Part shown: positions 29,647 through 35,252 of the stretch, in pieces | Layout: every line of letters starts with the position of its first letter | Numbering within the stretch: position 1 is the first letter of the stretch | Origin: Cladosporium halotolerans | Lineage: Eukaryota | Reading direction: 5' to 3' | DNA: 64,000 nt | Assembly (NCBI RefSeq): GCF_011745625.1 | Contig: NW_027191483.1 | Span: 124,001-188,000, forward strand | Position numbers and translations under genes: made by a program | The notes under the pieces: generated by a model | Told to the model about the DNA's origin: nothing | Seen by the model: only the letters and a program-made list of their open reading frames with translations | Databases searched by the model: none

Positions 29647-30340
29647 TTAACGGCCGGTGGAGGCGCGCTTGATGATGGTGTCCTGCTCAATGTCGTCGGC
29701 GTCGTTGGCCTGGATGTCGACGGCAATGCCGTTGAGCGCGCGCTTGAGGGCGTCCTTGGAAGAGGAGTACATCATGCGCGGCTGGAACATCGTGTCAGTG
29801 ACTCCCGCATACTAGATTTTGTCTCCTTCATCTCATTTGAGCTGAACTCACGTATTGGGTCGCATCATCTGGAACCCAGCTGATGAAGCAGATCTTGTTG
29901 CGCTTGCCCTCACCGTTGGGAGCGTCGTACTCGACGTCGTAAACGGCGTAGCGGCCACCGATGCCCTCGTTGCCCTTCTTGTCCTTGCTCTTGGCGTCGA
30001 GCAGCTTCTGGCGGAAAGCGTCGTAGTTGTTGTCGGAAGAGGACTCCTCGACAACAATCTCCTTCCAGTCGTCGGAGATCTTGTAGATGATCCACTTGGT
30101 GCTCTTGCCCAGCTTCAGGTCGTTGAAGGCAGTGATGCACTCGGGAACGACGGAAACACTGGAAGATGCGTGTCAGTTGCGGCGGGCTCGTGGCAAGAGG
30201 CGCGGTTGTGGCGAGCGGCTTCGATGGAAGATTGTTGAGGATGGCTCAGCTGGCGGTGAACGTACCCTGATTGCGCCTGAGATAACAATGGTCAGTGAGC
30301 TTATCCCTCGAAATGCAGCTGTGTCCGATTTACTCACCAT
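29647..30340 (-). CDS. COF1: Cofilin/ADF; ATG-only first coding exon, 11-nt micro-exon 30266-30276, three introns
   Basis: Spliced M-AQSG-VSVVPECITAFNDLKLGKSTKWIIYKI...GRYAVYD...KICFISWVPD...RMMYSSSKDALKRALNG...IQAND. Confidence 0.93.
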
Positions 30341-30984
30341 CTTGTCAATTTGAGGTCGTTATAAGATACTAGAGGGAGTCCGTTGACTGCGGGTGATGTG
30401 GTGGTCGAGGTCTAGCGATCTCGTTAGCCCACTTTCGTTAGTAAGGAGGGACAGCAGCCAGCGCCGGCGGGTGGATAGCATATGTATAGCGCGGGACGTC
30501 AGGTTGCTGCCTGAGAAAGGCGGCAGCCATACCTGGATGGGATTCCGAACACTCGAGGCAGGCAGTAAAATTGTGGTGGAGGGCTGCGTATGTTTGGGTG
30601 ACGACGAGACAGAGGTGTCAACAGCCGGCGGGCAGCCTCGACAGCCCACCAGGCGGGCGTTCGTCAGCCCCACTGCACGGGCTTGGCCGACGTGGAGGGG
30701 AGCAGCATGTTTTGCCTCAACCACGCGGGCAGCAATGACGAGCACGAGGTTTAATCAAGTGCTTTTTGAGCACGCACGAGACGACAGAAAATTTCGTATG
30801 GAAATGTCACTGGTTCTTCAGACTGCATTATGAAGAAGTGCAAATTATGACATCCCTGCCGCACTACTTGTCAAAAGCCCTAACCATCTCCCTCGTTCAT
30901 CAAGCCGTTTTATCGCACACCCTTGTGTATTGGCCATAGTGGACGCCCTTTGACATGCAAGAATCAAAACATGGTACTCTCTCA

Positions 30985-32789
30985 CTAGACTGTACCAGCA
31001 ATGCTGAGTTCGCGGATCTGGCCCAAGACATCCTCCACCCGACCGTCCAAGTCGCCGCTTGCGTACTGGTCACGTGTAGAGGCGTCGAGGTATTGTTGCA
31101 CTTGCGCCATGCGGCTGTATGCTTCGGCACAGAAGCGGAGCTGAATCTTGACAAGCGCTTCGAAGGTAGGGTCGAGGTAGGGCACTCTGTAAAGTCATCG
31201 CGGTTAATAAACCTGGTCTGCAAGCATTTGGGGAGCGATCACGAACCTCAGGTCGATCAACTGTGGTAATTCACTCATCAACTGCTCGTTCAACTGGTCA
31301 TACGCAGCCTTAGCCTGTTCCAAATTGTCAGCCTGCTTTCGAACAAAGTCCACCTTCAGCGGTGCCATGATCTCCTCCAGCTCGCTTGGTTCGAACCAAG
31401 GAGTGCTGAAGGTCTTGGAAACCCGAGCCTCACGCGGCCACGTGCCTCCACGCGTTGAGGTGGAGTCACGGGCCAACGGCGATGAGTTGACGGCAGACTG
31501 TGACTTCCTGAGATAGATGCTGGAGGAGCGTGAGAGTCTGCGGTCGATTTGGGCGGAGATGCTGCGTTTGGGACTTGGACCTTCAGGACTTGGACGGCAA
31601 AGACGGAAAGTGCCGGACGACGAATGGCGCCTATGTGAACGCTCCGGAGTTCCTTTGTCAGTGTCGGTTTCGGCCGGCGATGAGAGCAGACTCGAGTAGC
31701 TGCTAAGAATGCTCGAAGTCCGCGCGAGAAGACTCTTGCGGGCACGTCTTCCTCGTGTCGGTGAAAGGAGCAGCTCGCTGTCTTCGTTGATCGTCTCAGT
31801 CTCCTCTCCCTCATACTCAGGAGTCAGGCCGAGTCGCAGCCGAATGCCGTTGAGGGCTTTCGGGGGCGACGGAAGAGTGAAGTCGGTGTTAGTTCTTGCG
31901 CTCAAAGCAGACATGCTGCTTTCACGATTTGTCGAGGCAGAGCCAGAGGGGGGTGTATCGCGAAGGAAATCAGTGAGGCTGACCATGTCTTGTTCCTTTT
32001 CCGTGCGCGGCAACTTGGCGGGGTCCTTGTCCGGCTTCTCTGTGAGTCTCTTGACTTTCGAGCGCATCGAGTCGTAGTCAAGCATCTTGTGTTGCCGCTT
32101 CTTGATGCCTGCCAATTCTGTCAGCTCGCTGATCATCCAAATCTAACTGCCTATCCTTGACTTACACTCGTTGATGTCCGGGAAGTACGCGCAGAATCGG
32201 TTGATAGGGTCCAGCACCGTCGTCCTGTAGATGAAGTCTATGAGCTCTCCGTACGATTCCATGTCCGCTCTTAGCACACCGGCAAAGCTCTCCTGCACAC
32301 CTCTGTTCATCTGCCATTCGATAATCGCAAGCTCTGCGGTGTCTTCCGCCTTCTTTTCCCAGTTCCACGCATATTCTCGGAGGTCGGAGGGCACACACCT
32401 GTACGGGCCATCCAGTGCTTTGACAGTCTCGGCGTCCAGATCCTCGACCGCCTGCTTGTAGCTCCTGCTGACGCCGTCCGTGGCACCGCTGTCGCCGTAG
32501 AAGGCGTCGATCGTCTCAGCGATGCGCATCTGCGAGGCTGTCATGGCACGCAGCGAGTCGAGGTATCCTTTGGCCTCTTTCTGGAGGCGGAGCGACGCTG
32601 ACTCCAACGTGCGGTAACGGCGCTCTTCTACTTCGTACTGTCGGTCGTTGGTCTTCTCCACCTGCCCGGTCTTCATCATGACCTGGGTCGTCGCGCGACC
32701 GACCTGTAGTACACAGTGAGTTTATGATCACTCGATGCTGACGGCGAGACTTAGTCACATACATTCTTCTTGAACCCGGACCACGACAT
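30985..32789 (-). CDS. RVS161: BAR-domain amphiphysin Rvs161/Hob3; five introns, including in-frame stop-free introns 32225-32398 and 31315-31983
   Basis: MSWSGFKKN-VGRATTQVMMKTG, AKGYLDSLRAMTASQ, KKRQHKMLDYD, ELPQLIDLRVPYLDPTFEALVKIQ. Confidence 0.93.
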
Positions 32790-33416
32790 CTTGCCAGTGC
32801 CGGGAGTCGCAAATTGGCAGAGAGTGCTCTAAACGAAGTTGCAAGATTGACAGGGTAAACAGAAGATGATGTGCTGAGGTCGACTATGCGACCTAGGACA
32901 CCGGGAAGGAGGGCGTAGTGGCGGAGTGTTTGCGATCGGCGCAGGCAATGCCCAACCCACGTTGGAGTGGAGCGGGCTGTGAAGGCGCTTGGTGGGAAGC
33001 GGTGCCGAGCCTCAGGACTGGGTGACGTATGGGTCCAGCTACGACTTTCGAGGGCGCCTGTTGTCGACGCAAGCAGGACGCAATGAAGATTGTCCGTTTT
33101 TCACTGGTGTCGGATTGCCGTATGTAGAGAGTGGTGTGTATTCAAATGTCAATGCAATGTTTTGATGTGTTGGTCTGCGGTGGTTGAGAGTGAGCGCGGA
33201 ACAATTTGGGAAGGCACGCCAGCACGATCAAACGCGTGACCAGGTCGCGGGCTCAGTCTACTCTGCACATGTGATTTCACTTGAATGTTGAATTTTGAAT
33301 GTTTAGGATGTATCTGGTATATATTCAATTCACGTCATCATGCTCGCAGTCCGTTGAAGCCGTTGTCCCCCATTTTGTTAAAACGCCGCTGCCACAAGCA
33401 AGTCAAAAGAAGTAAT

Positions 33417-34841
33417 TTAGTACAGCACTCTGGTCATGATCCTGCTGCCCAGGTCCTCGAGGCTCTGGTACAGGCCCCTAATGTCGTTGGCATTGACGTC
33501 CGAGATATCGGCCATCAGGTACGCAACGTCGCCGCGAGAGTCGGTCATCTGCTTGTCAACGTTGTGGTCGCCAAGGATCTCGTTGACCTTGCGAAGCACA
33601 CCAGGAACGTTTTTGTGGATGTAGACGACACGGACGTGGTTGGGCTCTTCGAGGGTGAGCGAACGGAGGGAGACCTCGGGCATGTTGACGGCGCCGACAG
33701 TCGTACCGAAGTTCACGTAGTTAACGAGAGCTTCCGCAACTTCCACGCCAATCGCGCTCTGCGCCTCCTCGGTCGAGCCACCAATGTGAGGGGTGAGCAG
33801 GACGTTCTTAAGCTTGCGAAGCTCCTCGGTGAAGTCGTTCAGCTCCGCGTTGAAGTTGGGGCCGTTTCCGCCGGGCTCGTTGGGGTAGACATCCAGAGCA
33901 GCGCCGGCGAGCTTGCCGGACTGGGAGGCCTTGATGAGAGCAGGGATGTCGACAACACTGCCGCGCGAGGCGTTCAGGAGGTAGGCGCCCTTGCGCATCT
34001 GCTCGAACTCCTTGGTGGAGATCATGCCCTTGGTGTCCTCAATCTCGGGAACGTGGAGGGTCACGAAGTCGGCCTGGCGGAGCAGGTCCTCAAGCTTGGG
34101 GACCTGAGTGGCAGTTCCAAGGCCCATGAGATTGATCACGTCGTAGTAAATGACCTTCATGCCCATTGCCTCGGCCAGAACGGAAAGCTGGCTACCAACG
34201 TGTCCATAGCCGATGATTCCGAGGGTCTTGCCGCGCACTTCCCAGCAGCCCGCAGAGACCTTCGCCCATGTGCCATTGTGCAGCTCCATGCTCCTGTCAC
34301 CAAGCTGCCTCGCCAGGCAGATAATCTCGCCGATCATCAACTCGGCCACTGAGCGAGAGTTCGAGAAGGGAGAGTTGAAAACGGCGATACCGCTCTCAGC
34401 CGCATACTGAAGGTCGACCTGGTTGGTACCAATGCAGAAGCAGCCGATGACGATGAGGTTCTTTGCGTGCTTGAGCACGTTCGCCGTGAGCTTGGTCTTG
34501 GAGCGGATACCAATGACGTGAACGTCCTTGATCTTCTCGATCAATTGGTCCTCGGGTAGCGAGCTCTTAAGTGCCTCGACCTGGTACTTCTGTCCTTTGA
34601 GGATGGTCTGGCCAGTCTCGTTCACGTTCTCCAAGAGGAGCACCTTGATGTCCTGGGTGTTGAAAGGTTTGAGCTGCTTAGCCGACGGTTTGCGAAGGGC
34701 ACCGAGGCTGTTCGCAGGGCTGTGGAAGGTCGCGGTCGGGCTGGTCGACACCTCGTTGCCGCCGAAAGAGTTGGAGACTTCTCCAATGTCCTGGGCGGCA
34801 TGGCCGCCACGCACGGGGATGTTCAAAGCTTCAGAGGGCAT
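33417..34841 (-). CDS. SER3: D-3-phosphoglycerate dehydrogenase
   Basis: GIRSKT, GCFCIGTNQV, NSPFSNSRSVAE, GIIGYGHVG, LTPHIGGSTEEAQ, and a C-terminal ACT domain HKNVPGVL. Confidence 0.96.
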   Translation of the reverse strand: MPSEALNIPVRGGHAAQDIGEVSNSFGGNEVSTSPTATFHSPANSLGALRKPSAKQLKPFNTQDIKVLLLENVNETGQTILKGQKYQVEALKSSLPEDQLIEKIKDVHVIGIRSKTKLTANVLKHAKNLIVIGCFCIGTNQVDLQYAAESGIAVFNSPFSNSRSVAELMIGEIICLARQLGDRSMELHNGTWAKVSAGCWEVRGKTLGIIGYGHVGSQLSVLAEAMGMKVIYYDVINLMGLGTATQVPKLEDLLRQADFVTLHVPEIEDTKGMISTKEFEQMRKGAYLLNASRGSVVDIPALIKASQSGKLAGAALDVYPNEPGGNGPNFNAELNDFTEELRKLKNVLLTPHIGGSTEEAQSAIGVEVAEALVNYVNFGTTVGAVNMPEVSLRSLTLEEPNHVRVVYIHKNVPGVLRKVNEILGDHNVDKQMTDSRGDVAYLMADISDVNANDIRGLYQSLEDLGSRIMTRVLY

Positions 34842-35252
34842 GGTCGCTGTTGTGTATTGCGAATGGAGAAAATCAGAAGGGAAGAATTCAGGGAGAGAGC
34901 TTTGGTACCATTTATACAGCAGGAACGTACGAGTACCAAACCCAGTCACCTCAGACAGTCATGAATAGCCTAGAAAAAAGCCGCCCACTGGCTCCGATTA
35001 CGCCATACGACAGCCCACCAAAACGCGGCTTGACCCTCCGTGCCCTCTTCACAGGGATCTGGCTCGTGCGGCACCGGAGGCTGATGGCATGGTGAGACAT
35101 CACTCTTTGCCTTCCGTCCCGCCATCCTTCCGCCATGCACCAACAACATACTACATTATTGCAAGGTTCTTGAGATGCCATGCTTTGTCATAGATGTGCC
35201 TCTTGGACTGTGCTCTATTGTCGATAGTGCAGGAATTCGTCTGGGCGTCATG

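Follow-up and report, generated by a model that had tools for sequence, protein, structure and literature searches.

Alternative splicing in filamentous fungi consists mostly of intron retention, usually seen as noise or as a route to mRNA decay, and cases in which one gene gives two functional proteins in this way are few. One ordinary kind of fungal intron retention is coupled to nonsense-mediated decay (NMD). Rvs161/Hob3 proteins are BAR-only members of the amphiphysin family that form a heterodimer with Rvs167. Among proteins with a BAR domain, Rvs167 and amphiphysin have constitutive disordered linkers behind that domain, and BIN1/amphiphysin-2 has an exon 7 of 31 amino acids. According to the excerpted text of PMC7389646, BIN1 exon 7 is an optional segment inside the N-BAR domain that enables dynamin 2 binding, and the peptide NQAEEELIK bridges exons 7 and 8. 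The exitrons of Arabidopsis and human are described, in the excerpted text of Marquez et al. 2015 (PMC4484396), as having the retained transcript as the major annotated form, and some of them derive from ancestral coding exons. Their splice sites are weaker than those of other introns, and their retained transcripts are exported and translated. Here we describe an element of a related kind in the Hob3/Rvs161 gene of Cladosporium halotolerans, found on a stretch of 64,000 nt (the window; NCBI RefSeq assembly GCF_011745625.1, contig NW_027191483.1, positions 124,001 to 188,000 of the forward strand). We hold with good confidence that intron 4 of this gene is a true spliceosomal intron which doubles as optional coding sequence, like an exitron. 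It is likely a rare case of functional alternative splicing in fungi. Our literature search returned nothing on this element in Rvs161/Hob3, nor on fungal exitrons of this kind.

The spliced translation of the gene is identical (261/261) to the database entry P0121, "Protein hob3 [Cladosporium halotolerans]", in which Pfam BAR (PF03114) covers residues 6-229 (E 2.4e-60; 204.5 bits, cut-off 28.5). BAR is the sole Pfam domain of the 261-aa short isoform above cut-off and there is no SH3, which fits the BAR-only Rvs161/Hob3 class. The five introns are all GT..AG and measure, in order, 59, 174, 57, 669 and 60 nt. The features of the gene and of its fourth intron, in the direction of reading, are as follows.

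30985..32789, minus strand: Hob3/Rvs161 coding region in six exons, from the ATG at 32789 to a stop codon whose last base is 30985; 261-aa short isoform.
31984..32108, minus strand: exon 4, IKKRQHKMLDYD...KLPRTEKEQDM, assigned to the end of BAR helix 2 and the tip loop.
31315..31983, minus strand: intron 4, 669 nt, phase 0 after residue 172, stop-free; if kept, it would give a 484-aa isoform.
31978..31983, minus strand: 5' splice site GTCAGC, which is also the Val-Ser codons of the long isoform.
31852..31872, minus strand: conserved island PSPPKAL, insert residues 38-44.
31315..31404, minus strand: conserved C-terminal block TPWFEPSELEEIMAPLKVDFVRKQADNLEQ, insert residues 194-223, whose final 25 residues form a predicted helix that runs on into exon 5.
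31327..31332, minus strand: branch-point box GCTGAC, which is also Ala-Asp codons.
31315..31317, minus strand: 3' splice site CAG, which is also the final Gln codon of the insert.
31247..31314, minus strand: exon 5, AKAAYDQLNEQLMSELPQLIDL, assigned to the start of BAR helix 3.

Read on the reverse complement of the window, intron 4 is made of 223 codons that begin with GTCAGC and end with GCTGACAATTTGGAACAG, with no stop in the frame set by the exons. Across its 5' border the reading is ...KLPRTEKEQDM followed by AKAAYDQLNEQL..., and the exon 5 side encodes AKAAYDQLNE. An initial annotation made from the letters of the window had described the segment 31315..31983 in these terms (669 nt, 223 codons, no stop, GTCAGC, GCTGAC and CAG signals), and all of them were re-derived from the sequence. 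It had also called the length an outlier; intron 4 is indeed about 11 times as long as three neighbouring introns, but the 174-nt intron 2, likewise in frame and stop-free, had been overlooked. The peptide, described there as rich in Ser, Arg and Pro with RxxS and SP sites, holds 41 Ser, 25 Arg and 18 Pro among its 223 residues, with 10 RxxS/T and 10 S/T-P sites. The donor GTCAGC stands against GTATGT, GTGTGT, GTAAGT and GTTCGT in the other introns of the gene.

The three minus-strand frames of the segment contain 0, 3 and 13 stops and the plus-strand frames 7, 2 and 11. Shuffling produced a stop-free frame 119 times in 20000 when dinucleotides were preserved (0.6%) and 9 times in 20000 when only mononucleotides were (0.045%), and the probability of such a frame is 1.3e-3 when calculated from the window-wide stop-trinucleotide frequency of 2.9%; all three figures need a further factor of 1/3 for a length that is a multiple of three. 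The chance of about 1e-4 given at first was therefore too small by roughly 2-20 times depending on the null (about 1e-3 would be nearer), but an open frame of this kind is still unlikely by chance.

We compared contigs of four public runs with the window. The run type is unrecorded, and the RNA nature of a run was judged from five precise joints. The joint 31313/31983, which skips the 669 nt and reads CT..AC on the plus strand, was present in X19, X8 and X13 at depths of 429, 227 and 30.5. These three runs come from three studies and are also joined across the four other introns (intron 3 in two of the three); because the joints are exact across introns, they hold spliced transcripts. The fourth run, X17, appeared as a DNA-like relative, unbroken across the gene with 30 differences. 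Intron 4 is a real intron, cut exactly at the borders given above, and the spliced short form is the major RNA.

Unspliced copies of the segment were found in the same three runs. An X19 contig (record 15) covers 31286-31985 at depth 39, two X8 contigs (records 19 and 20) cover 31422-31965 at depth 36.4 and 31936-32012 at depth 22.9, and an X13 contig (record 2) covers 31286-31775 at depth 5.44. These contigs run into the exons. The unspliced share is about 9-26% of the flanking exon depth and the spliced joint contig is 6-11 times as deep as the unspliced segment in all three runs, these ratios being rough only, as contig depths are means. Spliced and retained forms, which the initial annotation had proposed to look for in RNA, thus occur together in contigs of all three RNA-like runs. 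The accompanying claim of a long isoform made by retention has the unspliced contigs of all three runs in its favour, but most of the RNA is the spliced canonical form. Of the cover listed for X19, X8 and X13, none lies over introns 1, 3 and 5 or 3' of the gene; contigs lose rare forms, and selective retention of intron 4 is therefore not claimed.

To judge the segment in relatives, metagenome contigs were scanned with exonic patterns only (L[TV]EKPDKD and ELPQLIDL), so that they were not chosen for open frames. The patterns matched 528 stretches, 271 of them relatives, and the best 80 were kept. Among these best 80 of 271 relatives the insert is carried by 27 loci. It is complete in 19 loci with 15 distinct sequences, and 14 of the 15 are a multiple of three and stop-free, with lengths of 567-969 nt; in the eight loci where a contig end cuts the insert, seven are open over the 114-738 nt available. 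All insert-bearing loci have the arrangement GT...CTRAC-N12-CAG. The donor is GTCAGC in L001-L008 and L010 and GTGAGC, GTGGGT, GTCAGT or GTAATG elsewhere, and GTAAGT, which also reads Val-Ser, is used by none of them. The branch-box codons among orthologues are GCT GAC, ACT GAC, ACT AAC or GCT AAC. Three of the loci (L014, L020 and L024) resemble gene models of Friedmanniomyces, a genus with a duplicated genome.

In at least 38 further loci exons 4 and 5 abut, some of them on contigs of 30-430 kb that retain other introns, which indicates that many fungal lineages have no intron at this site. Many of the insert-free contigs among L039-L080 also have no intron 5, with residues 132-261 contiguous, so the intron positions of the gene vary widely between lineages. 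Eight short metagenome contigs gave a single tblastn match from residue 1 to 259-261 of the 261-aa form, with identities of 98% (L026, L027), 91-92% (L029, L030, L032), 83% (L045), 80% (L033) and 70% (L036); the L036 match is about 110 nt too long and may retain an intron. These eight contigs look like spliced mRNA of relatives. A long form with the other introns removed was not found among the 80 kept loci.

The open frame is accompanied by changes of the kind expected in a protein-coding segment. Nei-Gojobori dN/dS of the insert in the seven closest pairs was 0.23 (L001-L002), 0.31 (L001-L003), 0.25 (L001-L005), 0.31 (L002-L003), 0.39 (L002-L005), 0.28 (L003-L005) and 0.59 (L004-L010). Differences at the first, second and third codon positions numbered 16/22/46, 28/31/66, 34/38/76 and 32/32/75 (chi-square p 1e-4 to 2e-6), and the bias was not significant in L004-L010 (56/44/63). 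By codon position, entropy was 0.71/0.71/1.25 over the 27 codons upstream of the branch box and 0.74/0.48/1.43 in the PSPPK island, position 3 being nearly twice positions 1 and 2. Conserved Ser codons switch family, between AGY and TCN, inside the motifs PSPPKAL and TPFFxPSELEEIM. Over the last 7 codons the values were 0.76/0.35/0.70, position 3 being as constrained as position 1, as expected since splice signals overlap the codons there.

The other parts of the same gene served as internal controls. Between five Cladosporium-like loci, identity was 0.59-0.80 in the insert, 0.32-0.68 in introns 3 and 5, and 0.76-0.99 in the exons. The GC content of the insert (0.575) is close to that of the exons (0.579), and introns 1, 3 and 5 together have 0.466. 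Intron 3 is open by chance in P0001, P0019, P0022, P0061, P0069, P0080 and P0068, giving open reading frames (ORFs) of 485-500 aa that cross three introns; as a negative control, the intron 3 read-through translations of relatives show no mutual likeness. On these substitution patterns, the intron 4 segment evolves like coding sequence.

Protein databases contain counterparts of this peptide. The 223-residue insert translation alone found 15 representatives at E<=1e-3, five of them at E<=1e-30, among 1.84 billion, with a lowest identity of 31%. A contiguous exon 4-insert-exon 5 query found 238 proteins at E<=1e-5 among 1949 candidates. Among the matches listed, 107 of 120 entries have an open insert of 92-325 aa between both exon flanks. 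The first residue is V, as the donor GT dictates, in 105 of the 107; the last is Q (CAG) in every one, and [AT][DN], the reading of the CTRAC branch box, stands at positions -6/-5 in every one. An SPPK-type motif S[PLT]P[KRQ] occurs in 98 of the 107 inserts and a PSELE-type block in all. The alignment consists of conserved islands (VS..FL, DLxVPSPPKALxGI, R.SS..S and TPFFxPSELEEIMxPLKxEFxxxQ[AT]DxLxQ) in a variable background of variable length.

Relatives have 24 named NCBI gene models in which the segment is coding, and the genera with the insert in their models include Cladosporium, Zymoseptoria, Cercospora, Pseudocercospora, Fulvia, Zasmidium, Teratosphaeria, Friedmanniomyces and Neophaeotheca. 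The four taxa looked up belong to Cladosporiales, Mycosphaerellales and Neophaeothecales, all Dothideomycetidae. The frame preservation, codon-level conservation and end motifs that the initial annotation had proposed to look for in orthologous introns of Pezizomycotina are thus present, but the named carriers are Dothideomycetidae and not all Pezizomycotina. The reading of the segment as an exitron is supported in both respects that could have spoken against it: the orthologues are not a series of stop-laden segments devoid of codon conservation, and retention is seen. In Zymoseptoria tritici the gene is 261 aa in strain 3D7 (P0158) and 528 aa in strain 3D1 (P0170), and the gap is exactly the intron 4 segment. 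P0121, the nearest public annotation (C. halotolerans), splices the segment out. Both forms are thus already in public gene models, without comment. The proteomes of this clade give the gene as 261 aa or as 500-620 aa by strain, which reflects the intron 4 element and not real gene differences. The Fulvia fulva model P0136 (926 aa) has a 595-aa insert at the intron 4 site. In the Hortaea werneckii model P0109 the insert starts with D and not V; the donor has been lost, or else the model has different boundaries.

The 484-aa long isoform departs from the BAR-only architecture of about 260 aa. When the full-length long form was aligned to human amphiphysin (4ATM), the insert fell between chain residues 176 and 177, and the stretch EKPDKDPxKLPR before it aligned with a lysine-rich stretch of Drosophila amphiphysin (1URU) which we take to be the helix 2-3 tip loop. 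These alignments place the insert where BAR helix 3 begins, directly behind the tip loop. In the AlphaFold model of the exon 4-insert-exon 5 piece of the window, insert residues 1-198 have a pLDDT of about 42-61, and a single helix at 240-285, made of the last 25 insert residues and exon 5, has 87-95. The full-length protein P0130 of Cladosporium inversicolor gave a similar picture (residues 231-469, pLDDT 36-55; helix 470-520, pLDDT 92-95). Foldseek of the P0130 model, which is mostly low-confidence loops, had no match in the PDB at E<=0.001. On these models, the end of the crescent would gain, in the long isoform, a disordered arm of about 200 residues and a longer helix 3. The disorder with a helical end that had been proposed from the letters agrees with the predicted 25-residue terminal helix continuous with helix 3. 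A loop near the distal tip had been proposed as well, and the site just past the tip loop agrees with it, but only about 200 of the 223 residues look loop-like.

From its conservation and frame, intron 4 probably encodes an optional insert of 223 residues, and the following mechanism can be proposed. The bulk of the RNA is spliced at GT..AG to give the canonical 261-aa BAR protein, and unspliced copies coexist with it. An unspliced mRNA of this kind has no premature stop and should therefore be translated into the 484-aa isoform. This isoform would place about 200 disordered Ser/Arg/Pro-rich residues, with PSPPKAL and the RxxS sites, just past the helix 2-3 tip loop, and the 25-residue helix would then extend helix 3. 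PSPPK matches the consensus of proline-directed kinases and contains a PxxP core. The insert may be viewed as a putative segment for docking and phosphorylation at the distal tip of the crescent, and it might alter the end-to-end packing of the Rvs161-Rvs167 scaffold or its recruitment of partners. How well the non-consensus donor GTCAGC is used may set the isoform ratio.

Several observations weigh against a coding role of intron 4. The locus L020, which is the same as L021 in another assembly, has a 653-nt insert with a 1-nt deletion relative to the 654-nt insert of L014 and three in-frame stops, and in L017 the partial insert is interrupted by a stop at codon 47. The unspliced signal could be partly or wholly pre-mRNA, because contigs cannot tie intron 4 to an otherwise mature mRNA. 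The unspliced X19 contig is identical to the window except that it has no base at 31760 (depth 39 of 39), and the deletion, if real, would end the retained frame near insert codon 209. GC3 is 0.61 in the insert and 0.775 in the exons. Near-identical strains differ at 9 sites of the insert, 5 nonsynonymous and 4 synonymous, so that constraint is weak over most of its length. The codon alignments were guided by the frame under test, an effect that is minor for close pairs (0-3 gap columns). Most of the 120 database entries are plain ORF calls, and as an ORF is found only when open, the database count has an ascertainment bias.

Some further facts belong beside these points. The base at 31760 is present in X8, X13 and X17, and X19 is from the same sample as the run that contained all sampled words. 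Intron 2 remains open in both L017 and L020 despite the broken frame of intron 4. Between frame-broken L020 and L014, third positions account for 24 of 39 listed substitutions (p 3e-4).

The rival that survives best takes intron 4 to be constitutive and its retention to be splicing noise, the open frame being kept only so that unspliced mRNA gives a harmless protein and not a truncated, dominant-negative BAR fragment. The predominance of the spliced form in every run, the treatment of the segment as an intron in the annotation of the nearest species, the two lineages that tolerate a broken frame and the weak constraint across most of the insert would all suit it. Harmlessness, however, needs no motifs, yet PSPPKAL and TPFFxPSELEEIMxPLK are kept across the three looked-up orders with synonymous turnover and Ser codon-family switches, and these islands persist while the insert varies from 92 to 325 aa. 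A shorter intron would also be a cheaper solution, as in the lineages that have ordinary short introns. We regard this rival as unlikely.

It has less to recommend it that the long protein is the main product in the clade and that removal of the segment is minor or regulated. The 24 gene models with a coding segment and the purifying selection on the peptide would be natural under such an arrangement, but it runs against the spliced joint that is 6-11 times as deep as the unspliced segment in each run. The eight environmental mRNA-like contigs are of the short form, with no otherwise-spliced long form among the 80 kept loci, and every insert-bearing locus keeps the donor, the branch box and the CAG. 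We consider a main long product very improbable.

Conservation could in principle belong to the RNA, for instance to a small RNA carried within the intron, to a regulator of splicing or to an antisense gene, and not to the peptide. Long fungal introns can host snoRNAs, and the segment is overlapped by two ORFs on the plus strand, of 125 and 131 aa. Yet a scan of 30700-33100 against Rfam gave no match within the segment at E<=1, the lone sub-threshold match (ASdes) being in exon 2 and judged to be chance, and Pfam gave no family on the insert, the intron 2 peptide or the two plus-strand ORFs. Variation falls mainly on the third positions of the minus-strand frame, the reverse of what an RNA element predicts, and we give this explanation scarcely any weight. 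That intron 4 is a plain long intron left stop-free by chance, for which the few open dinucleotide-preserving shuffles and the long ORFs in other frames of the segment might be cited, is contradicted by the relatives and almost certainly wrong: despite many indels, 14 of the 15 distinct complete orthologues preserve the frame, and there is a bias by codon position.

With intron 4 read as an intron that doubles as coding sequence, the rest of the gene can be considered. Its other introns are as follows.

32704..32762, minus strand: intron 1, 59 nt, ordinary, with precise joints in run contigs.
32225..32398, minus strand: intron 2, 174 nt, phase 2, in frame and stop-free.
32109..32165, minus strand: intron 3, 57 nt, ordinary, with an in-frame stop in the window copy.
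31187..31246, minus strand: intron 5, 60 nt, ordinary; read-through ends at a stop after 13 codons.

Like intron 4, intron 2 is capable of coding. It is spliced in contigs of the three runs, and an unspliced contig is present in X8 at depth 10.6. Its length in insert-bearing lineages is 165-246 nt, and all 16 of the distinct sequences there are open. Five Cladosporium-like loci have an intron 2 of exactly 174 nt, at an identity of 0.73-0.92. Its dN/dS was 0.14-0.50 in 17 pairs, and in the AlphaFold model of P0130 the first 30 residues of its peptide have a pLDDT of 80-93. Lineages without the intron 4 insert have at this site an intron of 46-82 nt, of mixed frame and mostly with stops, or none. 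The site is thus that of an ordinary short intron in other fungi, which suggests an intron-to-coding route. A wider proposal, which we put forward tentatively and would not yet favour, is that introns 2 and 4 of Hob3/Rvs161 in the Cladosporium-Mycosphaerella group are optional protein modules, so that a single BAR gene might yield as many as four proteins. At least at the intron 2 site, coding capacity would have been built from an intron; its product would be a small element of helix 2 with a confidently predicted fold. Intron 4 would encode a disordered arm with kinase- or SH3-type motifs together with the helix 3 extension at the crescent tip, and the plain Rvs161 subunit would become an amphiphysin-like adaptor on demand.

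The neighbouring ORF at 33417-34958 on the minus strand encodes a D-isomer 2-hydroxyacid dehydrogenase, phosphoglycerate dehydrogenase-like, with a weak ACT-domain match below the Pfam cut-off. The ORF at 29828-30172 on the minus strand is a cofilin/ADF exon.

The element matters because its peptide is under purifying selection across at least three looked-up orders and lies at a defined point in the structure of a well-studied endocytic scaffold. It comes with built-in controls, namely the ordinary introns of the same gene and the insert-free lineages, and the question of whether intron retention diversifies fungal proteomes becomes directly testable.

Compared with known systems, the element shares with NMD-type retention the retention of an intron in a short-intron genome. 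It differs in that intron 4 introduces no premature stop or frameshift and its retained sequence evolves as protein, whereas introns 1, 3 and 5 do introduce them. Like the linkers of Rvs167 and amphiphysin, it is a long disordered segment with motifs attached to a BAR scaffold; unlike them, it is optional and interrupts the BAR domain of a partner that is normally BAR-only.

In function the nearest parallel is BIN1 exon 7, as far as the excerpted text of PMC7389646 describes it, likewise an alternatively included segment within a BAR domain of the amphiphysin family. AEEEL of BIN1 pairs with the fungal TEKEA, which puts the fungal site, where helix 3 begins, about 7 residues downstream of that of BIN1 exon 7. 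BIN1 exon 7 is a cassette exon, whereas the fungal element is a single continuous GT..AG unit between exons 4 and 5. The BIN1 exon is metazoan and without sequence likeness to the fungal insert, which is 92-325 aa long and mostly disordered.

Closest are the exitrons, within what the excerpted text of PMC4484396 says of them. As in exitrons, canonical splice sites lie within a sequence that can be read as protein, here spliced in contigs of all three RNA-like runs, and the length is a multiple of three, with no stop on retention and an internal deletion on splicing. The GC content is above that of ordinary introns (0.575 vs 0.466 here), the encoded region is predicted to be disordered and is rich in modification-type sites, and the frame is under exon-like pressure. 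The fungal element differs from the exitrons described there in that its spliced form predominates and corresponds to the ancestral BAR-only architecture, and the companion intron 2 suggests an origin from intron to coding sequence, the reverse of the exon-to-exitron route.

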